A DNA stretch of 64,000 nt from an uncultured Candidatus Saccharimonadales bacterium. GTDB lineage: Bacteria; Patescibacteriota; Saccharimonadia; UBA4664. The notes under the pieces are model-generated. The model did not search any database and was not told the origin of the DNA. It was given only the letters and a program-made list of their open reading frames with translations. Positions 1-64,000 of this stretch are shown one piece after another; within the stretch, counting starts at the first letter, position 1; each line of letters begins with the position of its first letter. Location: contig CAZSRA010000004.1 in assembly GCA_964609585.1 (NCBI GenBank), positions 27,417 through 91,416 of the forward strand, written 5' to 3'. A program made the translations under genes and the position numbers.

Positions 1-1
1 G

Positions 2-241
2 GCCGCGACACACCAGCTTTTGAAGGAGCACGTGAACCAGGTGTTGGCACTTTTGACGCCGCGCGAACAGAAGATTTTGCGCATGCGGTTTGGTCTGGAA
101 GACGGGCGCTCGCACACACTTGAAGAAGTAGGCCAGGAGTTTGGCGTGACGCGCGAGCGAATTCGCCAGATTGAGGCGAAGGCTTTGGCGAAGCTGCGGA
201 AACACCGTGAGAGTAAGAAGTTGCGAGATTATTTGCGGTAG
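2..241 (+). CDS. rpoD: RNA polymerase sigma-70 family factor, C-terminal fragment (gene starts upstream of window)
   Basis: ORF open at window start; region 4.2 HTH motif [28 protein letters not shown]. Confidence 0.65.
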
Positions 242-285
242 TTTGTGCAAGGTGAGATGGGGTTCAATCGGGTATACTGAAAAAC

Positions 286-3078
286 ATGAAGAAGCCTATT
301 TTAGTCTTGGTTGATGGTTCGGCGGTGTTTCACCGCGGGTATCACGCGCTGCCGCCGCTTTCGACGCGGGAGGGGATTCCGACGAACGCGGTGCTGGGTT
401 TTGCCAACATTATCTTTAAGGTAATGGAGTCGCTGAAGCCGACATACGTAGTGGTGGCGTGGGATAAATCGAGCAAGACGTTTCGCAAGGAAATGTATGC
501 TGAGTATAAGGCGACGCGCACAAAGCAGCCGGATGATCTCTATGCGCAGATTCCGCACACGCGCGAGCTGGTGGAGGCGCTGAATTTGCCGTGGGTGGAG
601 CTGGAAAACTACGAGGCGGATGACATTATTGGGACGTTTGCACGGCAGGCAGAAGAGCGTGGCGACGTGGATATTGTGATCGCCACGGGCGATAAAGATC
701 AGCTACAGTTGATTGATAAAAGCACAGTGGTGGACATGTTTAATCCGCGGGGACTTGAGCCGACGCGGTACGACCTCGCCAAAATGCAGGAGCGGTACGG
801 GCTGACGCCGACGCAATTTATTGATTATAAGGCGCTGGTGGGGGATACGAGCGATAATATTCCGGGTGTGAAGGGGATTGGCGATAAGGGGGCGATTAAG
901 CTGCTGGCGGAGTATGGGTCGCTGGACGGGATTTATGAGCACGTAGACGAGATTAAGGGCAGTGTGGGTGAGAAACTGCGGGCCGAGAAGGATATGGCTT
1001 ATTTGAGCCATAAACTGAGCGTGATTGTGTGCGACGCGCCGGTGACATTGGATCTAGAGGCGGCGAAATTGCGACCGCACGATTATGGGCATTTGAAGGA
1101 GCTGTTTCGGAAGCTGGAATTTCGGAGCTTGATGGCGAAATTGCCGGTGCTGGAGGCTGTAGAGTCGGGGAAGGCGCCGGGTGGGGCGGCTTCGGCCACG
1201 GGGACATTGAGCTTGTTTGGCGAAGACACGGGCGAGTCGGCCAAAAAAGACCGCGAGCATCTGAAAACGGCGAAGTACTACACGGTGGAGACGACGGAGG
1301 CGCTGGAGAAGCTGGCACGGGAGTTGGAGCAGCAGGAGGTGTTTGCGTTTGATACGGAGACGACGGGCGTGGACACGTTGGCGGCGGATTTGGTGGGGAT
1401 TTCTGTGGCTTTTCGTGAGGGCGAAGCGTACTACATTCCCGTGGGGCATACGCAGGGTACGCAGCTCAAGCATGATGAGGTGCTGGCGCGGCTGAAGCCG
1501 ATTTGGGAGAATCCGAAGATTGGCAAGGTGGGGCACAACCTTAAATTTGACTACGAGATGCTGCGTAAATATGGGGTGAAAACGGCCAATATTGCGTTTG
1601 ATACGATGATTGCGGGCTTTTTGCTGAACTCAGCTGGCCGGTCGCAGTCGCTCGACGATATGGCATACGCGGAGCTGGGGATCGAGATGATTCCGATTTC
1701 GGAGATGATTGGCGCGGATAAAAAGTCGCAGGTGACGTTTGATACGACGTTGATTGAGGATGCCACGACCTATGCGGCGGAGGATGCCGATATGAGCTGG
1801 CGGCTGTATGTAAAGCTGCGGGAGCGGTTGCATCAGAATTCGAAGCTCAATGAGTATGGCTGGAGTATGGAGCGGCTGGCTACGGAGGTGGAGTGGCCGA
1901 TTGTGGGGATTTTGGCTGAGATGGAGCTCAAAGGTATTGAGCTGGACGTGCCGTTTCTCGCGGCCTTTGGGAAGCGATTGAGTGAGCGGATTGGGGAGCT
2001 CAAGGGCAAAATTTATGATCTGGCCGGCGAGGAGTTTAACCTTGGTTCGCCGGCGCAGATGGGACAGATTTTGTATGGTCGATTGGGGCTGACGGCGATT
2101 GGCATTAAGAAGGGTAAAACGGGTCTGAGTACGGCGGCGGCAGAGCTGGAAAAGATGAAGGATGCGCATCCGATTGTGCCGCTCATTATGGAATTTCGGG
2201 AAATGGATAAGCTCATGAGCACGTATGTGCTAGCGTTGCCGGACCAGGTGGCGGCGGACGGGCGGGTGCATACGAACTTTTCGCAGGCGATCGTGCCGAG
2301 TGGGCGGCTGAGCTCAAATAACCCGAATTTACAGAATATTCCGGTGCGTACGGAGCTTGGTCGGGAGATCCGGACCGCATTTGTGGCGCCGAAGGGCAGG
2401 GTGCTTGTAAGCGCGGATTATTCGCAGATTGAGCTGCGAGTGGCGGCAGCGATGGCTGGTGACGAGGACATGATGCAGACGTTTCGCGACGGGCTGGATC
2501 TCCACCAGCAGACGGCGGCGGAATTGTATGATGTGCCACTTGAGGAGGTGACGAAGGAGATGCGCAGTGCGTCGAAGACGATTAACTTTGGCGTGCTGTA
2601 TGGGATGAGTGCGCATGGCTTGAGTGTGGCCACGGGTATGGACCTGAAGCAGGCAAATGAATTTATTGAGCGATATTTTGAGGTGCGGCCGAAGCTGAAA
2701 GAGTTTATAGAAAAAACGAAGAAGATGGCGTATGACGAGCAGTATACGGCCACGATTTTTGATCGACGTCGGCCGTGCCCGGAGATTCGCACGAATAATT
2801 TTCATATAAAGCAGGCGGCGGAGCGGGTGGCGGTGAACGTGCCGATTCAAGGGACGGCGGCGGACATTTATAAACTGGCGATGATTGCACTGGTGAAGCG
2901 GCTGGATGATGATTGCCAGATGTTGCTGCAGATTCACGACGAGCTGATCGTGGAGGCGCCGGCGGAAAAAGGCGAGGCGGTGGCGGCGCTGATGAAAGAG
3001 GCTATGGAAGGCGTGATAGATCTGGGCGTGCCATTGGTGGTAGATACGGCTGTGGGGGTGAACTGGGGAGAATTATGA
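286..3078 (+). CDS. polA: DNA polymerase I (5'-3' exonuclease, 3'-5' exonuclease and polymerase domains)
   Basis: 930-aa ORF; polymerase motifs (DYSQIELR, QIHDELI). Confidence 0.95.
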   Translation: MKKPILVLVDGSAVFHRGYHALPPLSTREGIPTNAVLGFANIIFKVMESLKPTYVVVAWDKSSKTFRKEMYAEYKATRTKQPDDLYAQIPHTRELVEALNLPWVELENYEADDIIGTFARQAEERGDVDIVIATGDKDQLQLIDKSTVVDMFNPRGLEPTRYDLAKMQERYGLTPTQFIDYKALVGDTSDNIPGVKGIGDKGAIKLLAEYGSLDGIYEHVDEIKGSVGEKLRAEKDMAYLSHKLSVIVCDAPVTLDLEAAKLRPHDYGHLKELFRKLEFRSLMAKLPVLEAVESGKAPGGAASATGTLSLFGEDTGESAKKDREHLKTAKYYTVETTEALEKLARELEQQEVFAFDTETTGVDTLAADLVGISVAFREGEAYYIPVGHTQGTQLKHDEVLARLKPIWENPKIGKVGHNLKFDYEMLRKYGVKTANIAFDTMIAGFLLNSAGRSQSLDDMAYAELGIEMIPISEMIGADKKSQVTFDTTLIEDATTYAAEDADMSWRLYVKLRERLHQNSKLNEYGWSMERLATEVEWPIVGILAEMELKGIELDVPFLAAFGKRLSERIGELKGKIYDLAGEEFNLGSPAQMGQILYGRLGLTAIGIKKGKTGLSTAAAELEKMKDAHPIVPLIMEFREMDKLMSTYVLALPDQVAADGRVHTNFSQAIVPSGRLSSNNPNLQNIPVRTELGREIRTAFVAPKGRVLVSADYSQIELRVAAAMAGDEDMMQTFRDGLDLHQQTAAELYDVPLEEVTKEMRSASKTINFGVLYGMSAHGLSVATGMDLKQANEFIERYFEVRPKLKEFIEKTKKMAYDEQYTATIFDRRRPCPEIRTNNFHIKQAAERVAVNVPIQGTAADIYKLAMIALVKRLDDDCQMLLQIHDELIVEAPAEKGEAVAALMKEAMEGVIDLGVPLVVDTAVGVNWGEL

Positions 3079-3563
3079 GCGGGACAGCATCGGCGCAGGA
3101 CCAGCTTCTGCCCGCAACTTGTGAGGCTATTGTGGCGGCGGTGCAGGCAGTGGTGGCGGCTGAGCCGATGAAAAATATACAGGCGGTCGTATTGCCGAAT
3201 GGTACGGCCGTAGGCCAACAACTGGTGATTGATGCTACAGGGAAGGACGGCCGAGTAAATCGGTGTCGGTTGTCGATGTTGAATCCAGATATGGCGCCAG
3301 CGAGAGAAGTGGTGAGGATGGAATTTGAACACGATAAGGACGGTAAATTTGGTGTGCACCGGGTGTACTCAGTGCAAAGCGTGCGGCGGGTCAATTTGGA
3401 TTTAGTGCTACTTGAGAACTTTATGGCAGATAGCCCGGAGACAGTACGCGAGGAAGATTTTCGGCCGATTTTATCCGAGGCATATGTGCGAAAGACTGTT
3501 TTGAAGGCAGTGGAAGATTGGAGTAACTACCGGGCGTGGCAGCGCCAGCAAGGCGGGAAATAA
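3075..3563 (+). CDS. hypothetical protein (163 aa), translationally coupled between polA and fpg
   Basis: ATG overlaps polA stop (ATGA); stop overlaps fpg start (TAATG); no recognisable motif. Confidence 0.45.
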   Translation: MSGTASAQDQLLPATCEAIVAAVQAVVAAEPMKNIQAVVLPNGTAVGQQLVIDATGKDGRVNRCRLSMLNPDMAPAREVVRMEFEHDKDGKFGVHRVYSVQSVRRVNLDLVLLENFMADSPETVREEDFRPILSEAYVRKTVLKAVEDWSNYRAWQRQQGGK

Positions 3564-4435
3564 TGCCGGAAGGTCCGGAAGTAGAGACGATTCGAAGGGG
3601 GCTGGAAGAGCAGATTGTGGGCCAGGGGGTAGCTGGGGTTCGCGTTTTGTGGGAAAAGAGCTTTCAGGCGAGCACAGATGAGATTTCGAAGCTGGTGGTC
3701 GGGGCTCGTATAGCTCGGGTTCTGCGGCGTGCGAAGGTGCTTATTATTGAGCTGGATAATGAGTTTTCTTTGCTGTTTCATTTGAAGATGACGGGACAAA
3801 TGGTAATGGTGAAGGCGGACGGGGAACGATACGCAGGTGGGCATCCAAGCGATAGTATGGCTCTGGCGCTACCGGACAAAAGTACGCGTGTGGTGTTTGA
3901 ATTTGATTCGGGCGACAAGCTATATTTTAATGATCAGCGCAAGTTTGGCTGGGTGAAGCTGGTGCGCTCGGATGAGGTGGGTCTTGATGCATTGATTGCG
4001 AGACTAGGGCCGGAGGCATTGTCGGCGGAGTTTAGTGTGGAGTATTTGGCGGGGCAGCTGGCGCGACACGCGAAAGCGCCAGTGAAGGCGGTGATTTTGG
4101 ACCAGTCAACGCTCGGTGGAGTAGGTAATATTTACGCCGATGAATCGTTGCATTTGGCCAGGATTCATCCAGCTAGGCAGGCTGGAATTTTGACGCCGGA
4201 GGAAGTGAAGCGGCTTTGGAGCGCGGTGCGGGATATAATAGCGGCGGGAATTGAGCATGGCGGGACAAGTTTTGCGCATTATGTGAATTCGTTGGGCGGT
4301 AAGGGTGATTATTTGACCCAGGCGAGAGTGTTTCGACGCGAAGGCCAGCCGTGCCAAGTGTGCGGGACGACGATCGAGAAGATTCGAGTGGCGGGGCGGG
4401 GTACGCATATTTGCCCGAAGTGCCAGGTCTTATGA
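3563..4435 (+). CDS. mutM: formamidopyrimidine-DNA glycosylase (Fpg/MutM)
   Basis: N-terminal MPEGPEVE catalytic Pro2/Glu3; C-terminal zinc finger CxxC...CxxC. Confidence 0.9.
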   Translation: MPEGPEVETIRRGLEEQIVGQGVAGVRVLWEKSFQASTDEISKLVVGARIARVLRRAKVLIIELDNEFSLLFHLKMTGQMVMVKADGERYAGGHPSDSMALALPDKSTRVVFEFDSGDKLYFNDQRKFGWVKLVRSDEVGLDALIARLGPEALSAEFSVEYLAGQLARHAKAPVKAVILDQSTLGGVGNIYADESLHLARIHPARQAGILTPEEVKRLWSAVRDIIAAGIEHGGTSFAHYVNSLGGKGDYLTQARVFRREGQPCQVCGTTIEKIRVAGRGTHICPKCQVL

Positions 4436-5611: not shown

Positions 5612-6379
5612 TCAGCAATCGATTCTGGCAATAACGGCTTTGTGGTCGGAAACGAGCTGGTCATTTACTTCAATATGGCGAACCTTGAGATTGGGACTGG
5701 CAAAGAGGTAGTCGCAAATAATGCCCTGAACGTAGTGTGCGCTCGACAGTGTAGTGGTGGCTCCGGTGGCTGAGACGAGGTTGTACAAATCGGTGGTTTG
5801 CTGGAAAGCCTGAATGGCAGGACTGCCTGGCGAAAGGTTGAAGTCGCCACCAACGATGACGGGGCCTTCCAGGGCTTTGATATAGCTTGCAACTTCTTGG
5901 AGGCGTTCGGCTGAGGCTTCGTTGCCGCGAGGTTGATTAACCCAATGTCCATGGTGGTTGATGAGATTTAAGGTAGTGCCGTGGCTTGTAATGCTGACAT
6001 GCTGGAAGTTGCGAGTGAGGTTGCTATCGAAGCTTTCAAGTGAGGCTGGATTATCAAGATGGAGCGGTCCAGGGCCACCGGTATAGTGAGTGGAGGTGTG
6101 ATTAAATCGGTGTTTTGAGAAAATAGCGTTTCCATAACTAAGCTGGTGGCCGAACACATTGAAACTACAGCAGGGAGAGAAAAACACATGGTTGAAGTGG
6201 TTTTGAGTGCTGATGAGCTCTAGAGTGCGGAATTGTTTCCAGGGTGAATAGGGGCTGATATGCTCCGGATAGGTAAAGACCTCCTGGGTGAAGATAACAT
6301 CAGGGTTTTCTTGGTCGATGAGTTTTAGCAGGGAGTTTAGCAGGTGGCCTTGCCAAACGTTTACTTGCATTATTTTCAT
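5612..6379 (-). CDS. endonuclease/exonuclease/phosphatase (EEP) family protein
   Basis: 255-aa ORF with EEP-fold motifs (N-terminal MQVNVW..., C-terminal SDHKAV). Confidence 0.75.
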   Translation of the reverse strand: MKIMQVNVWQGHLLNSLLKLIDQENPDVIFTQEVFTYPEHISPYSPWKQFRTLELISTQNHFNHVFFSPCCSFNVFGHQLSYGNAIFSKHRFNHTSTHYTGGPGPLHLDNPASLESFDSNLTRNFQHVSITSHGTTLNLINHHGHWVNQPRGNEASAERLQEVASYIKALEGPVIVGGDFNLSPGSPAIQAFQQTTDLYNLVSATGATTTLSSAHYVQGIICDYLFASPNLKVRHIEVNDQLVSDHKAVIARIDC

Positions 6380-6383: not shown

Positions 6384-7019
6384 TCACACTGGTCCTATGG
6401 CTGACTTGGTGGCGGAGGCGGCAGTATAGGTTTTGGATTGCTTAAGCTTGCTGTAGTTGCCGAAGACTTCGGTGAGATGACGCTTCATGTAATCTTTGAG
6501 GCCGGAGATAGTAACGATATAGAGCCTGCCGCCGGGATTTAGGCTGGCATAGGCGTCGGCCAGGAAGATTTCAAGCAGCTCAGAGCCGATTTTGGCAGGG
6601 ACGTTAGAGACGATGAGGTCGAATTTTTGGCCCGCGGGTATGTCGCTGAGCCCATTTGAAAGGTAGGCTTGGGTGTTGGTGAGATGGTTGATTTGGGCAT
6701 TTTTGCGGGCGAAGTTTATGGCTACAAAGTCTTTGTCTATGAGATGAACGATGCCTGCCGGAGCAAGCTTGGCCAAAGCGAGGCCAAGCGGTCCGTAGCC
6801 GCAGCCTAAATCGAGAATATGGGCGTTTGGAGCGACTTCGATATGGTCGAGTAGGAGACGGGTTCCTTCATCGATTTGCTTGGGGCTAAAGAGCCCCCAC
6901 GTGGAATGAAAGGTGAGGTTTTGACCGCGAAGATTGGTTTGAAAGATGATATCGGCTTTGAGTTCTGGGATGGTCACGTATGACTCCATGACATAAAAAT
7001 GGGGCCTTGGTGGCCCCAT
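6384..7019 (-). CDS. class I SAM-dependent methyltransferase (RsmC/small-domain rRNA MTase-like)
   Basis: LDLGCGYGPLG SAM-binding motif, VSNVP motif. Confidence 0.75.
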   Translation of the reverse strand: MGPPRPHFYVMESYVTIPELKADIIFQTNLRGQNLTFHSTWGLFSPKQIDEGTRLLLDHIEVAPNAHILDLGCGYGPLGLALAKLAPAGIVHLIDKDFVAINFARKNAQINHLTNTQAYLSNGLSDIPAGQKFDLIVSNVPAKIGSELLEIFLADAYASLNPGGRLYIVTISGLKDYMKRHLTEVFGNYSKLKQSKTYTAASATKSAIGPV

Positions 7020-7029: not shown

Positions 7030-7506
7030 TTATTTCTCGGATTTTTCAGTGGTCTTTTTGGGGGTGGCTTTTTTGGCAACTGGTTTTTTGGCGGTTGTAG
7101 CTTTGGGGGTTGCCGCTTTTTTGGTGGCGGTTTTGGTGGTAGCAGCTTTCTTGCCGGCGCCTTTGGTGGTTTTGGTTTCGGCAGGAACGGTTTCAGTACC
7201 CGTAGCTTTAGCGACAGCATGAGCTAGCGCGCTTTTGCGGCGAGCGGCAGTATTTTTGTGCAACGTGTGCTTTTTAACGGCACGATCAATTTCGGAGTAT
7301 GCCTCGCTCAATTTTGTTTGAGTAAGTTTGGCGTCGCCGGTAGTGAGGGCATTGTGTAATGCCGTAATGTCTTGCTTGATAGCCCGCTTGACTTGCAGGT
7401 TGCGGCTACGACGAACGAGAGTCTGCTTTGCGCGCTTGATGGCTGATTTAATGATGGGCATGAAAGTTCCTAAAGTACCAAGGGAATATACTTGATTTTG
7501 AGGCAA
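7030..7506 (-). CDS. rpsT: 30S ribosomal protein S20 with ~65-aa Lys/Ala/Thr-rich C-terminal tail
   Basis: N-terminal ~90 aa S20 (MPIIKSAIKRAKQTLVRRSRN...); histone-H1-like KKAxT repeats at C-terminus. Confidence 0.85.
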   Translation of the reverse strand: MPQNQVYSLGTLGTFMPIIKSAIKRAKQTLVRRSRNLQVKRAIKQDITALHNALTTGDAKLTQTKLSEAYSEIDRAVKKHTLHKNTAARRKSALAHAVAKATGTETVPAETKTTKGAGKKAATTKTATKKAATPKATTAKKPVAKKATPKKTTEKSEK

Positions 7507-7587: not shown

Positions 7588-8850
7588 ATGGATTTAACTC
7601 CCAAACAGCAGACTTCTGAAGCGATTCGGCAAGCAGAATCGATCTTGATTCTGACGGGCCAACACCCTTCGGTTGACCAGGCGTCGGCCGTGGCAGCACT
7701 GGCGGCGATTTTGCGCAAGTTTGGTAAAAAGGTGAGTGCAGTGGTGAGCGATAACCCGCCAGCGGCGGTGCAATCGCTCGATCCGCATGCATTTGAGCGT
7801 GGGCTAGGTGGTTCGCGCGATTTTGTGCTGAAGGTGGATACCACGAAGGTCGAGGTTGATAAGCTCCGGTACGAGGCGGAAGGTGGCAAGCTCAATATCT
7901 ATTTGACGCCTTTTAAAGGTGGATTTGCTCCAAGTGATGTGACGTTTGGGTACGGCGCTTTTCATTATGATTTGGCGATCGTGCTTGGCGTGCCGACACG
8001 GGCGAGGATTGATCGGATTTATGAGCAGAACTTGGCTTCATTTGAGACGATTCCGATGGTGAATTTGGACTTTCACCGGTCGAATGAGAATTATGGCGCG
8101 GTGAATTTGATTGAGCCGAGTGCGTCGAGTTTGTGCGAGATGCTAGTAGCTTTGAGCGAGAGCTTGCAGAGCGGGATTATTGACGCGGAAATTGCGACGG
8201 CACTTTTGATGGGGATTGTGGCTTCGACAGACCGGTTTACCGCGACGCACACAAGCCCGAAGAGCCTAACGGTAGCGGCGCAGATGATGGCGGCAGGAGC
8301 TAGGCAACAAACCGTGGTACGGGCATTGTACCGCGAGGGTAAGGGAGAGTCGCGAGGGGAGCGTGGTGGCGACCGTGAACGTGGCGGGGAGCGTTCAGGC
8401 GACCGTGAACGTAGCGGTCAGGGTCAGCGTAATGCGGCGGCTCAGTCGCCTGTGGTACCGGCTCCGACGTCTGCTGCGGTCCGCGAACCGGCTGCTCAGC
8501 CTACCCCTGTGGTCCAGCCGACTCCTGCGGCTCCTGCTCCTGTTTCTGTGCCTGAACCGCCAGTAGTTGCGCCTGCGCCAGCTGCTGCGCCTGAGATGTC
8601 GACGCCTGCGACCTCGGTAGAGACTGCTCAGCCTGTGGCTCAAGAGCAAACGCGGCTCATGCAAGACGACGGTGCCATTATTCAGCCAGCTCATATAGAA
8701 ATGAGCGTACCAGAAGCAGTCCAGCCAGCTCAGATGGCGGCACCTCAGCCGCAGCTTGCCCCGGAGCGGCCCCAGGCTATGCCGGTAGCGGATTTTGCTG
8801 CGGCAGCCGAGATGTTTAATCGAGAACCGGTTGCAGACGACGCAAAATAG
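7588..8850 (+). CDS. DHH/DHHA1 family phosphoesterase (NrnA-like nanoRNase/pAp phosphatase) with long low-complexity RG/Pro-rich C-terminal tail
   Basis: DHH/DHHA1 motifs in first ~260 aa; C-terminal ~150 aa disordered (ERGGDRERGG repeats, PAAPAP). Confidence 0.75.
   Translation: MDLTPKQQTSEAIRQAESILILTGQHPSVDQASAVAALAAILRKFGKKVSAVVSDNPPAAVQSLDPHAFERGLGGSRDFVLKVDTTKVEVDKLRYEAEGGKLNIYLTPFKGGFAPSDVTFGYGAFHYDLAIVLGVPTRARIDRIYEQNLASFETIPMVNLDFHRSNENYGAVNLIEPSASSLCEMLVALSESLQSGIIDAEIATALLMGIVASTDRFTATHTSPKSLTVAAQMMAAGARQQTVVRALYREGKGESRGERGGDRERGGERSGDRERSGQGQRNAAAQSPVVPAPTSAAVREPAAQPTPVVQPTPAAPAPVSVPEPPVVAPAPAAAPEMSTPATSVETAQPVAQEQTRLMQDDGAIIQPAHIEMSVPEAVQPAQMAAPQPQLAPERPQAMPVADFAAAAEMFNREPVADDAK
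8365..8424 (+). repeat. 2 x 30-bp imperfect tandem repeat inside DHH gene encoding ERGGDRERGG/ERSGDRERSG
   Basis: gagcgtggtggcgaccgtgaacgtggcggg / gagcgttcaggcgaccgtgaacgtagcggt read directly. Confidence 0.8.
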
Positions 8851-9538: not shown

Positions 9539-9870
9539 TTTGGAGTATCCTCATTTGTGGTGCCCACAATACGTCTCTTGACTTTTATAAATTAATATAG
9601 TAAAATATATAACGATCGATTCACGATTGGGCTTGCCTTAGGCGAGAACAGCCGTGAGACGACCGCGCCCGCACGGAGCTCCAGTCCCCGCCAACCCGTG
9701 TGGCCGCCTTGTACCTGTCTTTTATGCATAACGTGAGTTCTTGGACTGAGGCCGCTCTGGTTGACTTCAGTGAACTTACTTGTACGTTAGTTCAAAGGTC
9801 GGCGAGAATCCTCTCGTTTGATCAAGCCCCTATCTTGAGCTAGTGCCACTAGTTTCGGGAAGGACGCACC

Positions 9871-10095
9871 ATGACCACTACGGCTACCCGGCCCGGTTCG
9901 GCCTCGGCTTACGTCTGTGAGCACCCGACGCCCTGTCCGGAGGCCCACGCCCCCGACCGCGACGCCGCCTTCATCCGGGCGGCCCACCCGGAGCAGGGCT
10001 GGTCGTTGCTGTGCAACGGCATCGTCCTGTTCGAGGACACCGGCGAGCTCCTGCCCGACGGCAGGTCGATCGCCCCCCACCGGCCCACTGACTGA
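9871..10095 (+). CDS. DUF5999-like small protein (actinobacterial-type), 74 aa
   Basis: motif HPEQGWSLLCNGIVLFEDTGELLPDGRSIAPHRP recalled from Streptomyces-type DUF5999; ~68% GC with C-ending codons on + strand; SD GGAAGGA upstream. Confidence 0.6.
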   Translation: MTTTATRPGSASAYVCEHPTPCPEAHAPDRDAAFIRAAHPEQGWSLLCNGIVLFEDTGELLPDGRSIAPHRPTD

Positions 10096-10145
10096 TAGCC
10101 TACGGGCTGCCGGTGACGCTCGGGGAGGCGTACTCCCCACCTACG

Positions 10146-10184
10146 ACCCATCGACTACGCGCTTCGTGCGCGTGGTCGATGGGT
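10146..10184 (+). terminator. stem-loop after DUF5999-like gene (17-bp near-perfect stem, loop TTCG)
   Basis: acccatcgactacgcgc ttcg tgcgcgtggtcgatgggt. Confidence 0.5.
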
Positions 10185-10292
10185 TACCACCCCGAGTTAT
10201 CGATTGCAATACATCGATGTCTCAGGCTGGTTTTGTTCGATTGACCAGTGGCTATTGCCAGATACGTATAGAAGTGCTAATATACCCGAGTT

Positions 10293-12985: not shown

Positions 12986-13579
12986 GTGAGCATGCAGGAA
13001 GAAAAAACAGATAAAGCGGCACAGCTGGCGGAAATAGCTCAGGCGATTGAAGCCAATAATGTGACTCCCCATTTGCGGGCTACGGCTACCCAACTCGTGT
13101 TCGGGACGGGGAGTGTGGACGCGGAGCTAATGTTCATTGGCGAGGCACCGGGGAAGCAGGAAGATCTGCAAGGCGAGCCATTTGTAGGGGCGGCAGGCAA
13201 GTTTTTGAACGAGATGCTGGATTCGATTGGCCTGAAACGGGCGGACATTTACATTAGCAACATCGTGAAATACCGGCCGCCGGACAACCGGGACCCCACG
13301 CCGGAAGAAATAACTGAATTTGTGCCGTATCTGAAGCAACAGATCGCGGTGATACGGCCCAAATTGGTGATATTTCTGGGAAGGCATTCTATGAATGTGT
13401 TCTTGCCGGAGCTTAAGATTAGCCAGGCGCATGGCAAGCCGGTGCGCAAGGGTGGGCAAGTGTATTTGCCATTGTTCCACCCGGCGGCAGCGCTGTATAA
13501 CGGATCGATGCGTGAGACGTTGATGGCAGATTTTGCATTGATTCCGGTGATACTGGAAAAAATTGCTCAAGCTTCCTAA
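12986..13579 (+). CDS. uracil-DNA glycosylase, family 4
   Basis: GEAPGKQEDLQGEPFVGAAGKFL motif typical of family 4 UDG. Confidence 0.85.
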   Translation: MSMQEEKTDKAAQLAEIAQAIEANNVTPHLRATATQLVFGTGSVDAELMFIGEAPGKQEDLQGEPFVGAAGKFLNEMLDSIGLKRADIYISNIVKYRPPDNRDPTPEEITEFVPYLKQQIAVIRPKLVIFLGRHSMNVFLPELKISQAHGKPVRKGGQVYLPLFHPAAALYNGSMRETLMADFALIPVILEKIAQAS

Positions 13580-16909: not shown

Positions 16910-16927
16910 CAAATTGAAGGAGTAACA

Positions 16928-47583: not shown

Positions 47584-47714
47584 GACTTACTCCTTTGGCT
47601 GTCAAGCGACAAACAATCTCGGCCCTTAGCCGAGAGAGGCCCGCTGCGAGGTACAGCGGACTAAGCGAATATGCGGGATTAAAGAGGATATGTAAATGAT
47701 TTTTGGTCTAGTAA

Positions 47715-47744
47715 TTGACAGTCCCAAAGCATAAGTGGGATACT
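47715..47744 (+). promoter_or_regulatory. predicted promoter TTGACA-N18-GATACT (TG-extended) upstream of major pilin
   Basis: read directly from sequence. Confidence 0.35.
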
Positions 47745-47790
47745 GTATCCAAGTTGTAATATTTCAACACACTAACGAAAGGTGATTTAG

Positions 47791-48273: not shown

Positions 48274-48301
48274 TCCAAAAAACGGATTCGCGATTTCCAA
48301 A

Positions 48302-48328
48302 AAAAAGAGGCCTTCGGGCCTCTTTTTA
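48302..48328 (+). terminator. rho-independent terminator after pilin gene
   Basis: agaggcc ttcg ggcctct ttttt. Confidence 0.75.
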
Positions 48329-48342
48329 GGTATAATCTTCTT

Positions 48343-48774: not shown

Positions 48775-49555
48775 CTACGGGCTCGTGGAGGTGCTGTTTG
48801 GGCTGATTTTTGGATCGGCGATCAATGCGATGGTGTGGCGGCTGAAGGTGGGGCGGAGCTGGGCGCGGGGTAGGAGTGTGTGCTCGGAATGTGGACATAC
48901 GCTGGCTGCGAAGGATTTGGTGCCGGTGCTGTCGTGGATTGCTTTGGGCGGAAAGTGCCGGTATTGCCGGAAGCCGATTGCCGATCACCCGGTAGTGGAG
49001 CTGGTGACGGGAGTAGTGTTTGGCGTGTCGGCGTATGTGCTAGCGCCGACGAGTCTGGCGGGCTGGGTGGGGCTCGGGTTTTGGCTGGTGCTTGTGGTGA
49101 TGCTTTTGGTGCTGGCGGTATACGACGCGCGGTGGATGATTTTGCCGGATGTGGTGATGGTGCCAACGATCGTGGTGGCGCTCGTGTATACGGTGGTGAT
49201 GGCGGTGATGGCTCGTAGCCCGCAGGTGGCGCTGGGGGCATTTGAGGCGGCGGTGGCGGTCGGCGGGGCTTTTTATGGGCTGGTAGTGGTGACAAAGGGT
49301 CGCGGGATGGGTGGTGGCGATATAAAGCTAGCGTTTGCGATGGGACTGGTGCTGGGCTTGCAGGGTACGGCGATAGCGATGTTTGTGGCTTTTAATGTGG
49401 CGGCGGTGGTAGGCTTGGTGTTGATTGCGAAGCGCAAGCGGGGCCGGCGTGATCATATGCCGTTTGGGCCGTATTTGGTGGGGGGGACGATGGTGGCGTT
49501 TTTGTTTGGGCGGCAGATTGTGGCATGGTATCTGAAATTAAATGGGTTATATTGA
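48764..49555 (+). CDS. pilD: prepilin peptidase (A24 family) PilD
   Basis: N-terminal CxxC...CxxC, catalytic Asp motifs (VYDARWMILPD, GGGDIK). Confidence 0.85.
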   Translation: MAISYGLVEVLFGLIFGSAINAMVWRLKVGRSWARGRSVCSECGHTLAAKDLVPVLSWIALGGKCRYCRKPIADHPVVELVTGVVFGVSAYVLAPTSLAGWVGLGFWLVLVVMLLVLAVYDARWMILPDVVMVPTIVVALVYTVVMAVMARSPQVALGAFEAAVAVGGAFYGLVVVTKGRGMGGGDIKLAFAMGLVLGLQGTAIAMFVAFNVAAVVGLVLIAKRKRGRRDHMPFGPYLVGGTMVAFLFGRQIVAWYLKLNGLY

Positions 49556-49564
49556 TAAGTACTT

Positions 49565-50209
49565 ATGGCTATGAAGAGACAAGCTGGTTTTACGCTGATT
49601 GAGCTCATTTTGGTGATGGCGATTTCGTCGATGTTGGCGGTGATAGCCTTTGCTGGGCAGCGGGGACTGCGGAGTCAGAGTCAGTTTGACGCTGACGTGA
49701 ACAAGCTGGTATCGACGATTGCGGATGCGCGCAACGAGGCGACGGCGGCGGTGAATATGGCGGGACCGGGCAATGGGTCGAAGAATTGTTTGATTAATAC
49801 GGTGCCAGGGGCTCAATACGTGTTTGCGGGAGTGGTGTGGAGTGCGATTGATGCGCCGGGAGGCGCGACGTTTCGCCTGGACTTTTATGCCGCCGACCGG
49901 AATGCGGCGCCAGCGGTAGCATGTGTGTTTGATACCCGCACGATTAGCGTGACGTCGGCGGTGATGCGCGTAAATGTGGCACCGGGGACGGGTGTGGCGA
50001 AGTCGGTATTTATACGTGACAACACGGGTAATTTGAACGTGTGCGCCGTGACGGCGGCGGCAACGAATGTGCTCACGAGCTTTACGGCTGGGAACTGCGT
50101 GGCGGGAGCGGCTGGTAATACGGCACTGGTGGTGAATTTGAGCGATGCCGATGGGCATACGTCGAAGGTGCAGGTAGATCCGAGCGGACTGGCACGGCGA
50201 ATTAACTAG
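49565..50209 (+). CDS. minor pilin / pseudopilin (FimT/GspH-like), prepilin motif G|FTLIE
   Basis: MAMKRQAGFTLIELILVMAISSML. Confidence 0.7.
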   Translation: MAMKRQAGFTLIELILVMAISSMLAVIAFAGQRGLRSQSQFDADVNKLVSTIADARNEATAAVNMAGPGNGSKNCLINTVPGAQYVFAGVVWSAIDAPGGATFRLDFYAADRNAAPAVACVFDTRTISVTSAVMRVNVAPGTGVAKSVFIRDNTGNLNVCAVTAAATNVLTSFTAGNCVAGAAGNTALVVNLSDADGHTSKVQVDPSGLARRIN

Positions 50210-50230
50210 CCCCGGCGTGTCCATGGTATA

Positions 50231-50821
50231 TTGAAGGTACTTATGCTTATGAACAGGGTTAGAGCGGTGCAGAGAGGCGAGCGGGGTTTTACTTTGATAG
50301 AGCTCCTGGTGGCGATGTCTGTGTTTAGCTTTATGTTGGTGATTGTGGTGACGGGTTTCATTAACATCGTGCGGCTTCATGATGAAGCTTTGGCTGCAAA
50401 CTTGGCCCAGGATAATGCGCGGGTAGCAATGGACGAACTGGTGAGAGGGGTGAGGAATTCTACGGGTGCAGCTTCGGCGACGGGTACCGGTGCCTCGGGT
50501 GTTTTGTGTTTGAATAGCTTAACGGGTTTGCCGGTAGCATACTATGTGCAGGGGGGCGTGCTGATGCGGGCGAACGATTGTGCAGCCCATAGTAATCCGG
50601 CGGCTATTACGTCGAGCTCGGTGTTTGTGTCTGACTTTACGCCGGCACAGCTGTCGCAGGGGCCAAAGGTGGTGAGGCCGCTGGTGCAGATGTCGGTGAC
50701 GGTGGGTTCAAATAACGGCACAACGGCAGGCTCGGGGGCGGCGCTTACGTGTGGTAGCACTAATGCGGACCGGACGTTTTGCTCGGTTGTAACGTTAACT
50801 TCGGAGGCGGCACCACGATGA
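50231..50821 (+). CDS. minor pilin (PilW-like), prepilin motif G|FTLIE
   Basis: RGERGFTLIELLVAMSVFSFML; start may be 50249. Confidence 0.6.
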   Translation: MKVLMLMNRVRAVQRGERGFTLIELLVAMSVFSFMLVIVVTGFINIVRLHDEALAANLAQDNARVAMDELVRGVRNSTGAASATGTGASGVLCLNSLTGLPVAYYVQGGVLMRANDCAAHSNPAAITSSSVFVSDFTPAQLSQGPKVVRPLVQMSVTVGSNNGTTAGSGAALTCGSTNADRTFCSVVTLTSEAAPR

Positions 50822-51876
50822 GACTACGAGAATTGCATATTTCGCGAATTACTTTGTCAGGTTCTGCGAGCCTCGAGCCCGGCCGGGATGGCTTTGTTTC
50901 GTTATTTACGGCGATTATGTTGAGTCTGTTGCTCATGGTGATTACGGTGAGTTTGGTGTCGCTAGAGGCACTGCAGTTGCGCAAAGCCGAAGACTCCGAG
51001 CAAACGCTTCGAGCGTACTATGCGGCAGAAGCGGGGGTTGAGGACGCCGTGAGCAAGGTGCTTAATAGCCCTTCGCGGGTGGCTCAGCCGTGTACCACTA
51101 ATACGAGCTACGATATTCCGGGTGCGGCGGGGTGGACGTGTCAGCAGATTACGTTTTCGGGAGCGCCTTCCGGTAAATTGACGGCAGATACGGCCACAAC
51201 GGTGGATCCGGGCCATGTGACGGGGCCGGGTTATAATAGCGCGATTGTGGAGTGGAATCAGGCGTCGAGCGGATCGTTTAGTGTGGGCGCGAGTTTGCCA
51301 TCTCAGGCCGGGTATACGGCTGCGGCACCACCGCTTGAGATCTCGATTGCATCGTACCCGTCGGCCGGGTTTAAGGCGAGTGATATTGGCGGGTCGGTGA
51401 AGTTGCAGAACGCTTTGATTGTGCCCAGGGGTAATACGGGTGCGTATCAGGTAAACTTTGCCGGATTGCTCGGGGGCGGGCAGTGGAATGGGAATTGTGG
51501 CGCTTTGGGACGCAGTTATACGATTAGTGGTAAGGCTTATACAGCAGCCTATAACTGCTATGCGGTGATTACGAATTTGACTACGGCTAAGGATTATTTG
51601 TTTCGGATTCGGTCACGGTATTTGCCCACGACGTACCGGATGACGTTTATGACGAGTGCAAATGGTGGGGGATCGGTAGTGCCAGTGCCGGATGGGATGG
51701 CTACCATTGATGTGACAGCCCAGGCTGGACAGACATACCGCCGGGTGATTTCAAAACTGCCTTTGGGAGTGGGAGCTGAGGCGACTTTGAACTACGTGAT
51801 TTATTCGGATACCAATGTGTGCAAGAACTTTACGGTACTCGATAACGTGGCACCACCGCCAAATACAGGGTGTTAA
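50818..51876 (+). CDS. PilX-like minor pilin/pilus-associated protein (non-canonical prepilin N-terminus)
   Basis: ATGA overlap with previous gene; hydrophobic segment GFVSLFTAIMLSLLLMVITV. Confidence 0.45.
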   Translation: MRLRELHISRITLSGSASLEPGRDGFVSLFTAIMLSLLLMVITVSLVSLEALQLRKAEDSEQTLRAYYAAEAGVEDAVSKVLNSPSRVAQPCTTNTSYDIPGAAGWTCQQITFSGAPSGKLTADTATTVDPGHVTGPGYNSAIVEWNQASSGSFSVGASLPSQAGYTAAAPPLEISIASYPSAGFKASDIGGSVKLQNALIVPRGNTGAYQVNFAGLLGGGQWNGNCGALGRSYTISGKAYTAAYNCYAVITNLTTAKDYLFRIRSRYLPTTYRMTFMTSANGGGSVVPVPDGMATIDVTAQAGQTYRRVISKLPLGVGAEATLNYVIYSDTNVCKNFTVLDNVAPPPNTGC

Positions 51877-52409
51877 TCATGAAGAAGTTTTTGGCTTCAC
51901 AGAGCGGTGATACGATTATTGAAGTGACGATGGCGCTGGCGATTTTGGCGGTAGTGCTGATGAGTGCGACGCTGGTGACGACGCGAGCTTTTCGGCTTGG
52001 GCAAACGGCGCGAGAGCGGACAACGATGGCGGAGGCAGCGCAGGGGCAGGCGGAAGAACTGCGGAGTTTTCGGGATAATCATACGTGGTCGGAGTTTTTG
52101 TATGGGGGTTCCATTGCGGGGGTGGCCTACAATGGGGTACTGACGATTCCGGGTGGTCCGGGATGTCATGTTTCGACGCCTTGTGCGCATATGTTGTATC
52201 GAACGTTTGCTGCGGGGGCGGTGGAATTTGTGCCTTCAGCCTCGCCGGTGGCGGGTCCGGTGCCTACGTCTTACTTGGAGATTTCGGTAACGCCGTTGAC
52301 GGCTCCACCGGTTACGAGCGTGAGCGTAACGGTGAGCTACGGCTTTACTGAGCTTGGTGGCTCCAATGTGGACGCGGGCCACATAAAGACAACGCTTACT
52401 CAGCTTTAG
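51870..52409 (+). CDS. minor pilin (PilV-like), prepilin motif G|DTIIE
   Basis: QSGDTIIEVTMALAILAVVLM. Confidence 0.5.
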   Translation: MLIMKKFLASQSGDTIIEVTMALAILAVVLMSATLVTTRAFRLGQTARERTTMAEAAQGQAEELRSFRDNHTWSEFLYGGSIAGVAYNGVLTIPGGPGCHVSTPCAHMLYRTFAAGAVEFVPSASPVAGPVPTSYLEISVTPLTAPPVTSVSVTVSYGFTELGGSNVDAGHIKTTLTQL

Positions 52410-53325
52410 GGCGGCTGTGGAACTTTTCGTGGACGGCTTTGAGCTGAGGATCGGTGATATGGGTGTAGATTTGAGTGGTAGCGATGTTGGCGTGTCCGAG
52501 AAGGCCCTGGACACTACGGATGTCGGCGCCGTTGATGAGTAAGTCGGTAGCGAAGCTATGGCGCAGGGTGTGGGGTGTGACGTCCTTGGTGATACCGGCA
52601 GCTACGGCGTAGCGTTTTACGAGGCGCTGGACGCTACGGACGGTGAGACGGGTATACATACCGCCTTCAGCGTCATCCTGGGTGCCGGAGTAGTGGATGA
52701 AGAGGGGTTTGCCGGAGTCTCCTCGGGTTTTTAGATAGCGATCGATCCAGGTGGCAGCTTGCTCGGAAATGAAGATGGGGCGGTCTTTTTGACCCTTGCC
52801 GCGGACCATGAATTCGCGGCGGTCGAGATTAATGTGGTCGATGTTTAGATCCACGAGCTCGGATACGCGCAGGCCGCCGGAAAAGAGGAGCTCGATGATG
52901 GCGCGGTCGCGCAGGCCTACGGGATTGCTCGTGTCGATGGCGTCGAGGAGGCGCTCGACTTCCTCGGTTTCGAGGAAGGTGACTTTGGGACGGACGGTTT
53001 TGGCGAGCTCGATTTTGGCGGAGTCGAGGGCTGCAATGTCCCGCTTGGCGAGGTATTTGAGGAAGCTCCGTAGGGCTATGAGGTGATAGTTTTGGGTGGT
53101 TTTGGTGAGCTCGTGGCCGGTGGAATCCTTGGTGCGATTGAGGTGGAGGCGCCATTGGCGGATCATTTCAGCGTCGAGTTTTTGGATGTCGCAGTCGCCA
53201 GAGAATTCGACTAGGCGCTGGAGGTAATGATCGTAGTTGCTGATGGTTTTTTGGCTACGGTTTTGCTCCACTTCGAGATGTTCGAGGAAGTCGGTGACGA
53301 GTTCGGAGAGAGGGAGCGTGGCCAT
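52396..53325 (-). CDS. xerD: tyrosine site-specific recombinase XerD/XerC family
   Basis: C-terminal HTLRHSFAT...LLGHANIATTQIYTH with catalytic Tyr. Confidence 0.85.
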   Translation of the reverse strand: MATLPLSELVTDFLEHLEVEQNRSQKTISNYDHYLQRLVEFSGDCDIQKLDAEMIRQWRLHLNRTKDSTGHELTKTTQNYHLIALRSFLKYLAKRDIAALDSAKIELAKTVRPKVTFLETEEVERLLDAIDTSNPVGLRDRAIIELLFSGGLRVSELVDLNIDHINLDRREFMVRGKGQKDRPIFISEQAATWIDRYLKTRGDSGKPLFIHYSGTQDDAEGGMYTRLTVRSVQRLVKRYAVAAGITKDVTPHTLRHSFATDLLINGADIRSVQGLLGHANIATTQIYTHITDPQLKAVHEKFHSRPKAE

Positions 53326-57839: not shown

Positions 57840-57866
57840 CCCGCACGTAAGTCGTGCGGGTTTTTA
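57840..57866 (+). terminator. rho-independent terminator after ndk
   Basis: cccgcacg taagt cgtgcggg ttttt. Confidence 0.75.
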
Positions 57867-57994
57867 GGTCTCAAAATGTTGGCTGTCTCTTGAGGGATTG
57901 TCGCTTTGCCTACGGGATGCTAGGGTATTGCTCTGGCGAGGATCGTCGTGATCTGAGAGTGGGCCAGCGGAATACCCGAGGAAAAGGGTGCACA

Positions 57995-58369
57995 GTGACA
58001 GCAACACGCAAGGAGTTTGTCCCGGCATGGTTGAAGGCCTGTTTGGCTGCCCAGATCTCTGAGGCGGCTGACCGGCTACGGGAAGCGATTTCTTGGGGTC
58101 ATGAGATCCGGGTCGGCTACGACGTAGCCGGTCAGGTGATCGCCACCCTGGTTCGTTACTATGTGGTGGGTCGAGAGGGGAACGAAGAGGCTCGTTATCG
58201 GCTCAACGCCGAGCAGACAACGGCGGCCTTGTTCCTGATGACGGTGATGTCGCTTTACGCGGCGATGGATCCTGAACTACAACTTCCTCTCGACGCGTGC
58301 CTGAAGGAGCAGCGCGTGTGGACGTCGCGGGGCTGTGAGTCATTCGAGGGAGTGGTTGTCGGTCTCTAG
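57995..58369 (+). CDS. hypothetical protein (124 aa), compositionally atypical (C-ending codons on + strand), adjacent to tRNA-Arg
   Basis: GTG start with SD AAGGG; followed by hairpin 58381..58405. Confidence 0.4.
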   Translation: MTATRKEFVPAWLKACLAAQISEAADRLREAISWGHEIRVGYDVAGQVIATLVRYYVVGREGNEEARYRLNAEQTTAALFLMTVMSLYAAMDPELQLPLDACLKEQRVWTSRGCESFEGVVVGL

Positions 58370-62298: not shown

Positions 62299-62416
62299 CC
62301 CGAAAAACAGCGAGGGGGCGAGGTGGTTGAGTTGAAGCCACTAGCCCGGAGGACCCTGAATTTTCAAGGCCCTCTTTTTTGTTTTCATACATGTTAATTG
62401 TGGATGTGGTAGCGTC

Positions 62417-63874
62417 TTAACTATCTAGACTCACTCGTAAAGCTAATACTTGCTCAAAACCGATAACCCAGCCAGTTTGGCGGATGCTGCGATAGAGTGG
62501 AGTTTGGAGGAGGTTGCCGCGGCTGTCGTAGACTTCGGGGAAGCCTTTGTGGCGAAGGATGGCGGTTTTGTAGGCGGTGATTTGGGCGTCGGCTGCTTCG
62601 AGGTATGTTTTGGCCTTGGTTTGGCGATAGAGGAGCAGCAGGGTCTTGATATATTCCATGCCCCAGAAGCTCCAGACGGCGTCGCCCCCGTAGGATGCTA
62701 CGGAGAGGCGTACGACGAGGAATTGGCGGCTGGCGCGGGTTTCGTGTTGGTAGCGAACGCCTAAGGGCTGGTCGATCTTTTGAGCCTGGAGGTAGGCGAT
62801 GCTGCGTTCGAAATAGGGGCGTTCTTTGGGGTTTTCGATTGAGAGAAAACCAGTGAAAAGCACTGCTAGCCAATCGGAGGAATAGTAATGGTTTTCGTGG
62901 CCAGCGGGTGACAGGTCTTCGAGGAAGTAGCCGCCTTCTTCGTACCAAAAGGTTTCGAGGATGGTGGTTTTGATTAAGGCTAGGCGATCTAAGTCTTTGG
63001 GAATGAGCCCGAGCTCCATAGCAAGTTGGGTGGTTTTCCAAAAGATAACGTTGTCGTAAAAGGCGCAGGAGCGTTTGGTGATGTCTTTGGCGCCGGAGAG
63101 CACGGCATCGGTGCGAATGAGGTTCATTGTGGGGTCGAAGACGGTGGTGTGGTAATGAGTGTAGAGAGCTTGGAGAGTTTGCGTGTAGTCGCCGAGGAGG
63201 GCGAGGCCAGCTAGCTTCGTGGCGGCTTTGTGCGGGTGGGGCGCGGAGTATTGGTAGAGCTTGGCGCTGGATTCCTTGCCGGTGAGTGCAGCAAGGGCGT
63301 AGAGGAGGCCGTAGACCGTGTCGGAGGGGTAGGCGTGGAAGTTGACGCAAGTGGCGGCTAGAGGGCCGGTGGGTACGATGGTGGTGGTGGGGACGCGGTA
63401 TTTGGAGAAGACGCCGAGACCGTAGGCGACGGTTTGGAGGTAAACGAGCTGACGGTTTTGCCAATCAATTTCGGTACTCGGTATGTTGGGGTCGAGCAGG
63501 GGATAGTAGAAGACGCCGAGGTTGCGTACGAAGAGGCTGTTGAAATGGTCGCCGGAGGTCACGAGGAGTTTGGTGGGATTAAAACGGAGCGCGTGGATGT
63601 CTGCGATGATTGTCTCTACGTTTTGGCCGACGGAAGCGGGGCTCGAAAGGTAGCGGGTATGGAGAATGTGGATACCGCATTTGGCCACAGCAAAAGCGCG
63701 CCACCACCAGTTTTGTCTGACAGTGAGTTTGTGGTTGCGATCGCGAGCTTCGATGACGGCATTGATCATGCGGGCGCGGTAAGGCAAGCGGATAATGCTG
63801 AAGCGACTGAACGGGCTCGTGAGGTGACTGTACGCTACAACGAGCGCCAGGGCAGCAGCGGGAAGAAAAAGCAT
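62417..63874 (-). CDS. glycoside hydrolase-like protein (possible (alpha/alpha)6-barrel, GDE_C/GH63-like)
   Basis: 485-aa ORF; function assignment weak, based on recalled motif patterns only. Confidence 0.4.
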   Translation of the reverse strand: MLFLPAAALALVVAYSHLTSPFSRFSIIRLPYRARMINAVIEARDRNHKLTVRQNWWWRAFAVAKCGIHILHTRYLSSPASVGQNVETIIADIHALRFNPTKLLVTSGDHFNSLFVRNLGVFYYPLLDPNIPSTEIDWQNRQLVYLQTVAYGLGVFSKYRVPTTTIVPTGPLAATCVNFHAYPSDTVYGLLYALAALTGKESSAKLYQYSAPHPHKAATKLAGLALLGDYTQTLQALYTHYHTTVFDPTMNLIRTDAVLSGAKDITKRSCAFYDNVIFWKTTQLAMELGLIPKDLDRLALIKTTILETFWYEEGGYFLEDLSPAGHENHYYSSDWLAVLFTGFLSIENPKERPYFERSIAYLQAQKIDQPLGVRYQHETRASRQFLVVRLSVASYGGDAVWSFWGMEYIKTLLLLYRQTKAKTYLEAADAQITAYKTAILRHKGFPEVYDSRGNLLQTPLYRSIRQTGWVIGFEQVLALRVSLDS

Positions 63875-64000
63875 TAGAGATAGGCTTTATCGATATAGCA
63901 CCAGCGCCATTCTTTTTCGCCAGCGGGTGCTGCGTGGAAGGATTCCATGACGGCGTGGCCCGTGGTTTCAAAGTGCTTGGTGGCATGTAGGCCGACCGAG
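63874..64000 (-). CDS. UBP-type zinc-finger (zf-UBP) protein, C-terminal fragment (gene continues beyond window)
   Basis: reverse-strand translation ...HATKHFETTGHAVMESFHAAPAGEKEWRWCYIDKAYL*; TAATG stop/start overlap with 62417..63874 gene. Confidence 0.55.
   Translation of the reverse strand, partial: SVGLHATKHFETTGHAVMESFHAAPAGEKEWRWCYIDKAYL

Follow-up and report, generated by a model that had tools for sequence, protein, structure and literature searches.

The forward (+) strand of the 64,000-nt stretch analyzed here (the window: positions 27,417 to 91,416 of contig CAZSRA010000004.1, assembly GCA_964609585.1, assigned to an uncultured Candidatus Saccharimonadales bacterium) is strongly enriched in G over C whatever the direction of its genes, and the strength of this enrichment is heritable and graded among relatives. 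We consider it probable that the window lies inside one replichore with the + strand as leading strand, and that its composition reflects a very strong replication-associated mutational asymmetry. The GC skew of the window is real and would be an unusually strong case of ordinary replication-strand bias. The feature is thus of a known kind, with an extreme value. Skew of this size had not been described in the Saccharimonadia lineage. No Saccharibacteria-specific report of extreme skew was found in the literature searched, where the only precedent from the candidate phyla radiation (CPR) was the work on Candidatus Chazhemtobacterium aquaticus Ch65 and its relatives (PMC7143001).

Base counts on the + strand are G 21743, C 13036, A 13897, and T 15324 (33.97, 20.37, 21.71, and 23.94%, respectively), with G exceeding C by two-thirds. 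The GC content is 0.543, the GC skew, (G-C)/(G+C), is +0.250, and the AT skew is -0.049 (T>A). For 34,779 G+C the binomial standard deviation of the GC skew is about 0.005, which puts +0.250 far outside chance. All 32 two-kb bins have positive GC skew, ranging from +0.13 to +0.36, and at this resolution there is no sign change in the 64-kb window. Expressed over all bases, (G-C)/N is 13.6% across the window. A G-over-C excess is "typically around 2.5%" in SkewDB (PMC8941118), and the label extreme is used here as judged against this typical value and against Ch65 only. Purines make up 55.7% of the + strand overall and 68-79% of it at four-fold degenerate sites.

The 62 protein genes of the window were curated, most of them with Pfam support. 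On the + strand lie 51 genes (47.4 kb), among them rpsO, rpsF, ssb, efp, recA, pnp, and ftsK, and 11 genes (10.3 kb) lie on the - strand, that is, 82% of genes and 82% of coding bases are on the + strand (binomial p=2.8e-7). The Pfam-supported genes include polA, fpg, holA, truB, rpsO, pnp, a UDG-family glycosylase, RNase J, ftsK, recA, recX, rpsF, ssb, efp, acs, ychF, a xerD-like recombinase, ndk, and a type IV pilus cluster (pilM/N/O/B/T/C/D and pilins). Neither polC nor dnaE is among the window genes. Per-gene GC skew at third codon positions (GC3 skew, in gene sense) averages +0.455 (sd 0.19) in + genes and -0.528 (sd 0.15) in - genes, and it separates the two groups without overlap (Mann-Whitney U=561=51x11, p=2.5e-7).

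Four-fold sites tell the same. Pooled over all curated genes and read in gene sense, their GC skew is +0.589 in + genes and -0.540 in - genes. With six compositional or ORFan outliers left out (native genes: 48 on + and 8 on -), the values become +0.605 [0.564, 0.645] and -0.752 [-0.799, -0.682]. These native-gene skews were split into a physical-strand component, (S+ - S-)/2, and a coding-strand component, (S+ + S-)/2, which amount to 0.68 and -0.07 for G/C and to +0.06 and -0.16 for A/T. The four-fold excess of T over A is a property of the sense strand, and the asymmetry between the chromosome strands is almost purely one of G versus C. At two-fold sites of the presumed leading strand, T/(C+T) is 0.64-0.72 and G/(A+G) is 0.63-0.70, the classical keto-rich leading-strand pattern, and G makes up 54-59% of its four-fold sites.

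The effect also depends on the class of site. The physical-strand GC component is 0.57-0.68 at four-fold sites, 0.50 at all third positions, 0.09 at position 1, and 0.06 at position 2. At position 1, genes of both orientations have a G excess in their own sense, with skews of +0.33 (+ genes) and +0.14 (- genes). Intergenic DNA (6.3 kb in total, e.g., 16910..17416 and 42013..42670) has a GC skew of +0.17, with the same direction overall and in each class of flanking gene orientation; a few short gaps have zero or slightly negative skew. As a separate observation, four-fold G enrichment in + genes is weak after a 5' G (+0.18 vs +0.70 to +0.75), GGG and CGG being avoided, and - genes have a similar but weaker effect in mirror image. 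Either an influence of sequence context on mutation or a tendency to avoid runs of G could lie behind this damping.

As a result of the skew, codon usage is split by strand. Codon fractions in + and - genes are 0.48 and 0.05 for GCG, 0.64 and 0.11 for CCG, 0.62 and 0.09 for ACG, 0.72 and 0.12 for GTG, and 0.74 and 0.25 for CAG; conversely, they are 0.17 and 0.62 for ATC, 0.10 and 0.56 for CTC, 0.12 and 0.56 for GCC, 0.11 and 0.62 for ACC, and 0.41 and 0.59 for GAC. The first principal component of relative synonymous codon usage takes up 50% of the variance and correlates with strand (r=0.91), so that a naive codon-usage screen would call every lagging-strand gene foreign. Codon-based screens for horizontal transfer or expression level in this genome should therefore be run per strand. 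Protein composition differs as well. Proteins encoded on the + strand contain more Val (9.4% vs 6.0%) and Gly (8.8% vs 5.7%) and less Thr, Ile, Leu, and His than those encoded on the - strand, a contrast that is confounded by gene function but corroborated by the comparison of orthologues described below. Such skew-driven drift of protein composition can mislead CPR phylogenies. Finally, the window contains 154 open reading frames (ORFs) of at least 100 amino acids compared with about 62 genes, and many of them are long antisense frames. On a G-rich and C-poor sense strand the antisense is short of stop codons, which leads to long spurious antisense ORFs, a trap for gene callers. An example is a 408-aa ORF (14475..15701) opposite RNase J.

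An earlier sequence-only reading of the window had described a strong strand asymmetry with G3-rich + genes and C3-rich - genes, about 80% of genes on the + strand, the codon preferences listed above, and an excess of G over C at synonymous sites regardless of orientation. All of this is confirmed, and the genes it named are real and lie on the strands it gave (polA, acs, and pilB on +; EEP, methyltransferase, rpsT, ychF, HAD, and xerD-like on -). It had proposed to compare GC3 skew per gene with strand, and third-position skew indeed differs by strand. Its warning that codon differences between strands should not be taken for horizontal transfer was well founded, as the first principal component illustrates. 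Its placement of the window on one replichore with co-oriented genes agrees with the 82% co-orientation and with the constant sign of the skew over 64 kb; the tie to replication is drawn by analogy. The interpretation was thus supported in its core, and its list of exceptions, discussed further below, was partly right.

PolA of the window has 62-83% amino acid identity to PolA from metagenome-assembled genomes of Candidatus Saccharimonadia, Saccharimonadales, or Patescibacteria, and up to 86% identity to soil and rhizosphere metagenome contigs. Judged by these similarities, the window is a piece of a Saccharimonadia (TM7, CPR) chromosome. The gene order polA-(hyp)-fpg-holA-(EEP)-MTS(-)-rpsT(-)-DHH-truB-(DUF5999)-rpsO-pnp is kept in 15 other genomes, and relatives were compared on the same five leading-strand and two lagging-strand orthologues. 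Their four-fold physical-strand component ranges from 0.16 (L009) to 0.75 (L008), and the window, at 0.68, is the second highest. From low- to high-skew relatives, four-fold C in leading-strand genes falls from 0.37-0.44 to 0.12 and four-fold G rises from 0.27-0.36 to 0.57-0.61, with no matching shift in A (0.06-0.19) or T (0.09-0.23). The four-fold purine fraction rises from 0.40 to 0.73 and two-fold C/(C+T) falls from about 0.55 to 0.28-0.30, while four-fold G+C is high in all relatives (63-85%). Without phylogenetic correction, Val+Gly in the same five proteins goes from 12.7% to 18.6% with rising skew (Spearman 0.86, p=2e-5), and the skews at codon positions 1 and 2 follow four-fold skew (Spearman 0.77 and 0.77).

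In a neighbor-joining tree of PolA, the three lowest-skew genomes fall together and the high-skew genomes form their sister group; the exception is the low-skew L004 (0.22), which is nested among high-skew genomes. The raw GC skew of the relatives' 4-23-kb loci spans 0.007 to 0.30, and a further five relatives, from metagenomes, agree with the pattern, one of them having a skew of 0.04 and the other four 0.19-0.23. In every relative with skew, polA is on the G-rich strand. Presence of genes near polA (hypothetical gene 3081..3563, EEP, and UDG) shows no consistent association with skew, and low-skew relatives also carry repair genes (fpg in all of them, UDG in L007). The cause of GC skew is still debated. 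Relatives that keep gene order and differ more than four-fold in the strand component provide a natural series in which to find the replication or repair genes that set the skew, and this graded series is the most useful aspect of the finding.

A window inside a single replichore with + as leading strand predicts a G excess that follows the strand, co-orientation of genes, and no sign change, and all three are seen. The skew decreases from four-fold sites to all third positions, intergenic DNA, position 1, and position 2, and this is the gradient expected if constraint filters a mutational bias. We propose that an unusually strong replication-associated asymmetry would deplete the leading strand of C or, equivalently, the lagging strand of G. 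The missing C would turn up as T at two-fold sites, where G would also be favored over A; at four-fold sites, which keep a high G+C, G would take its place. Constrained positions would follow only weakly, yet enough to shift amino acid usage. Single strands exposed for longer, or a changed step of repair or bypass, may be the cause. The pattern is more than plain C-to-T deamination, given that four-fold sites lack an A/T asymmetry and that intergenic skew is only +0.17. A toy four-state model that combines an approximately five-fold excess of leading-strand C-to-T with a fixation bias towards G+C reproduces the four-fold gain of G and both two-fold ratios; with the asymmetry turned off, C and G come out equal at about 0.41-0.43, near the values of the low-skew relatives. 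A joint fit of a five-parameter equilibrium model to four-fold, two-fold, and intergenic data was poor, and its parameters hit their bounds when intergenic data were omitted; this model is kept solely as a proof of principle and a record of misfits.

Several observations weigh against this account. Neither the 64-kb window nor the loci of about 20 relatives (1-23 kb) showed an origin, a terminus, or a change of sign, and the fetched loci of relatives contained no DnaA signature motifs. The replication-type AT component at four-fold sites is close to zero (+0.06), while both deamination and the toy model predict T>A. Intergenic skew (+0.17) is far below four-fold skew (0.6-0.75), while the toy model predicts it to be no lower. 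This would mean that constraint acts on the short spacers, which is an assumption, or that the chemistry includes strand-biased transversions. Finally, the FtsK-orienting motif GGGNAGGG has 10 of its 10 copies on the + strand compared with 13.4 expected from composition, and a count no higher than composition predicts provides no independent evidence of the direction of replication.

The notion that the skew is a by-product of transcription or coding, in which the sense strand would become G-rich through coding or through transcription-coupled damage or repair, is hardly credible for the G/C component. It would accommodate the 82% of genes on the G-rich strand, a G-rich position 1 in genes of both orientations, and the four-fold T>A that follows the coding strand (component -0.16). 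However, - genes are C-rich in sense at synonymous sites (-0.75) and thus add to the skew of the + strand, the GC coding-strand component is just -0.07, and intergenic DNA is skewed the same way in every flanking-orientation class. Since the G/C skew has opposite four-fold signs in the two gene orientations and the two-fold pattern goes by strand, an artifact of transcription or gene orientation is ruled out for this component: the four-fold sign in - genes refutes it, and Pfam matches exclude mis-stranding. It is also very unlikely that selection (on strand-specific signals or nucleic-acid structure) rather than mutation keeps the synonymous bias. Four-fold skew far above intergenic skew, its weakening after a 5' G (from +0.70 to +0.75 down to +0.18), and the lower skew of ssb, rpsO, pilin 47791..48273, and ppiC could be taken in that sense. 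Yet we know of no selective agent that flips codon preference with gene orientation, and the amino acid drift is what mutation pressure predicts. The damping after 5' G is better explained by codon selection against a mutational bias, and we read it, together with the low skew of these four genes, as ordinary codon selection opposing the bias.

Within a replication-linked origin, the underlying chemistry may be other than deamination. Oxidation of lagging-strand G (G-to-T, G-to-C), or conversion of uracil to an abasic site followed by bypass inserting C or T, would yield leading-strand C-to-G and C-to-A besides C-to-T. We regard this as possible, though tentatively. From low- to high-skew relatives, four-fold C gives way to G and not to T as the purine fraction climbs, the replicative AT component is about zero, a deamination-only toy model predicts too much T, and the window encodes both a UDG-superfamily glycosylase and Fpg. 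On the other hand, composition alone cannot tell mutation paths apart, in the toy model a G+C-favoring fixation bias makes C lost to T end up as a gain of G, two-fold sites carry the classical transition asymmetry, and the repair genes occur in low-skew relatives too. A different possibility is a chromosome-wide, one-directional G/C disparity, with most or all of the chromosome copied one way (unidirectional theta, or an origin next to the terminus). The closed chromosome of Ch65 has a cumulative skew that is monotonic throughout, and a unidirectional mode of replication was put forward for it (Kadnikov et al., 2020; PMC7143001). The magnitude and G/C-only flavor of the window skew match Ch65 and its relatives, both lineages are CPR with genomes of about 1 Mb, and neither the window nor the relatives' loci show a reversal, polA being on the G-rich strand in every relative. 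Nevertheless, we find it unlikely. Ch65 genes show no co-orientation with the G-rich strand (389 of 838 are on it and 449 on the C-rich one; PMC7143001) whereas 82% are here, 64 kb without reversal is expected in a replichore of about 0.5 Mb, and a closed Saccharibacteria genome has an ordinary two-armed cumulative skew (PMC6031116), which makes bidirectional replication the default expectation for the group. The bolder idea that the Saccharimonadia family carries the UBA1400-type disparity, a non-canonical and largely unidirectional replication that arose or was retained in a second CPR class and was combined with strong co-orientation, is improbable as well. In a less radical version, leading-strand C loss may be raised about five-fold by one discrete, inherited alteration of replication or repair; if true, the graded relatives (0.16 to 0.75) would let a genetic determinant of GC skew be mapped. 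A strong replication-associated asymmetry within one replichore is the reading that we prefer, and the genes departing from it are considered next (Table 1).

The sequence-only reading had singled out three + ORFs with C-ending codons as foreign or recently inverted. This holds for the DUF5999 gene, the sole + gene with C3>G3 (robust z -3.9). Its product matches DUF5999 (E=2.7e-32), and its relatives on plasmids come from Actinomycetota in 151 of 151 records, 146 of them Streptomyces. Over a 57-residue core it is 68-75% identical to Streptomyces copies, whose composition it equals, and 54-67% identical to the copies of L008, L010, and L026. The gene lies between truB and rpsO (9539..10292), with flanking spacers of zero skew. 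The copies in the relatives also sit after truB, in the truB-rpsO spacer of L010 and L026 and at the locus end in L008, and that of L008 looks host-adjusted (GC3 0.64, skew +0.39). Sequence similarity and composition thus support a foreign origin of this gene, and suggest that genes have flowed in from actinobacteria, perhaps more than once into this site. Actinobacteria are known hosts of Saccharibacteria. Genes of actinobacterial type are conspicuous once strand is allowed for, and in the relatives they are at varied stages of adjustment to the composition of the recipient.

The other two ORFs fared differently. Both keep G3>C3 (+0.17 and +0.24), and there is no evidence of inversion for either. 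They have coding-like GC periodicity, and among 5.8 billion proteins no homologs other than themselves were found; they are lineage-specific ORFans. Both proteins are on record from a 95,991-bp NCBI contig, the source contig of the window, and that of the first ORFan is also encoded on a 1.1-kb Logan contig from run SRR9179560. Moreover, equally low skew is found in other + genes (ssb, rpsO, pilin 47791..48273, ppiC, and arsR), so that low skew is not specific for foreign origin. We suspect high expression behind the low skew of several of these genes.

The sequence-only list of exceptions had omitted three GC3-rich genes on the - strand, namely two encoding secreted/lipoprotein-like proteins and one encoding a PD40 beta-propeller protein. 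With GC3 of 0.78-0.95 compared with a window median of 0.60, they are the clearest GC3 outliers, and they are less skewed than the native - genes. The C-richness of these genes is not explained by the strand effect alone, and they were probably acquired. The two secreted/lipoprotein-like proteins are 27% identical (E=3e-5). Placed between pilB and pilT (the two paralogs) or between pilC and pilin 47791..48273 (the PD40 gene), the three genes break up the pilus cluster. In tblastn searches against plasmids, the PD40 protein gave only weak, taxonomically scattered domain matches, and the protein from 41371..42012 gave none.

Table 1. Features of the window, with the skew or other evidence for each; gene skews are in the sense of the gene.
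Coordinates	Strand	Feature	Evidence
1..64000	+	G-rich physical strand, probable leading strand	GC skew +0.25 throughout
286..3078	+	polA, typical co-oriented gene; anchor for comparing relatives	GC3 skew +0.60, four-fold skew +0.68
3563..4435	+	fpg	Fpg
5612..6379	-	EEP-family nuclease/phosphatase, native lagging-strand gene	GC3 skew -0.62
6384..7019	-	MTS-type methyltransferase, native lagging-strand gene; on - in relatives too	GC3 skew -0.59
7030..7506	-	rpsT, native lagging-strand gene	four-fold skew -0.71
9871..10095	+	DUF5999 gene, actinobacterial type, exception	GC3 0.91, GC3 skew -0.22
12986..13579		UDG-superfamily glycosylase	window gene
17417..19630	+	ftsK, co-oriented, with gamma domain	GC3 skew +0.61
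23273..23809	-	PRC-barrel protein, lagging-strand gene	GC3 skew -0.46
28249..28998	-	HAD hydrolase, lagging-strand gene	four-fold skew -0.80
28991..30064	-	ychF, lagging-strand gene	four-fold skew -0.80
30203..31114	+	ORFan, reduced yet positive skew	GC3 skew +0.17; homolog search
40553..41200, 41371..42012	-	secreted/lipoprotein-like proteins, two weakly paralogous genes	GC3 0.78, 0.95; skew -0.35, -0.26
45226..47583	-	PD40 beta-propeller protein, 785 aa, inside pilus cluster	GC3 0.83, skew -0.37
52396..53325	-	xerD-like tyrosine recombinase, lagging-strand gene	four-fold skew -0.85
57854..58369	+	ORFan, reduced yet positive skew; contains 57995..58369 of the sequence-only reading	GC3 skew +0.24; homolog search
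62417..63874	-	hypothetical 485-aa protein, lagging-strand gene	GC3 skew -0.69

Some further features of the window were recorded. The type IV pilus locus is large (31221..52409) and contains pilM, pilN, pilO, pilB, pilT, pilC, a prepilin peptidase, at least three pilins with the N-methyl motif, and one PilX-like protein; ahead of the pilus genes lie the genes for three large secreted proteins that match no Pfam family (31733..33667, 33778..34227, and 34208..36064). An imperfect 30-bp tandem duplication is found inside rpsT (7101..7170), whose ORF of 158 aa is far longer than the S20 domain, and another one inside the DHH-family gene (8356..8417). Rfam and tandem-repeat scans of the window returned nothing beyond two tRNAs and a few short repeats.

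Compared with known systems, the window resembles classical GC skew in that G exceeds C on the physical strand whatever the gene orientation, with a peak at synonymous sites, in its keto-rich (G, T) two-fold sites, and in its mostly co-oriented genes. It is unlike it in magnitude (13.6% in the window vs about 2.5%; GC skew 0.25 overall and 0.6-0.75 at four-fold sites) and in being nearly without strand-linked A/T asymmetry at four-fold sites. In bacteria without PolC, leading-strand T>A would be expected alongside the skew. The window has an AT skew of -0.049 and two-fold T>C, but its four-fold T>A follows the coding strand instead. The heavy and light strands of vertebrate mitochondrial DNA also have very large skew, ascribed to C and A being deaminated on the strand left single-stranded the longest; codon and amino acid usage there depend on the coding strand, and GC and AT skews are both large. 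The window shares the very large skew and the strand-dependent codon and amino acid usage, but at four-fold sites it is skewed in G/C only, and the mode of replication differs. Genomes with Firmicutes-type PolC are similar in that about 80% of their genes lie on the leading strand, together with a purine excess on it. Their leading strand has A>T (PMC5291525), whereas the AT skew of the window is negative (T>A), with a slightly positive four-fold replicative AT component (+0.06).

The closest parallel is Ch65, of the Microgenomates order UBA1400. One strand of its chromosome contains 14.97% G, 29.83% C, 27.87% A, and 27.33% T, a GC skew of 0.33 in absolute value with no A/T disparity, and Collierbacteria and Beckwithbacteria, of the same order, reach 0.14-0.16 (PMC7143001). 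The window differs from it in having 82% of its genes on the G-rich strand, where Ch65 has a slight majority on the C-rich one, and in belonging to the class Saccharimonadia and not Microgenomatia, and the likeness is one of 64 kb to a closed chromosome. In both cases, however, the bearers are CPR bacteria with small genomes, A is close to T, and the absolute skew is of the same order (0.25 in the window, 0.33 in Ch65, and 0.14-0.16 in the relatives of Ch65). In both, too, related lineages share the trait and a more distant lineage lacks it.

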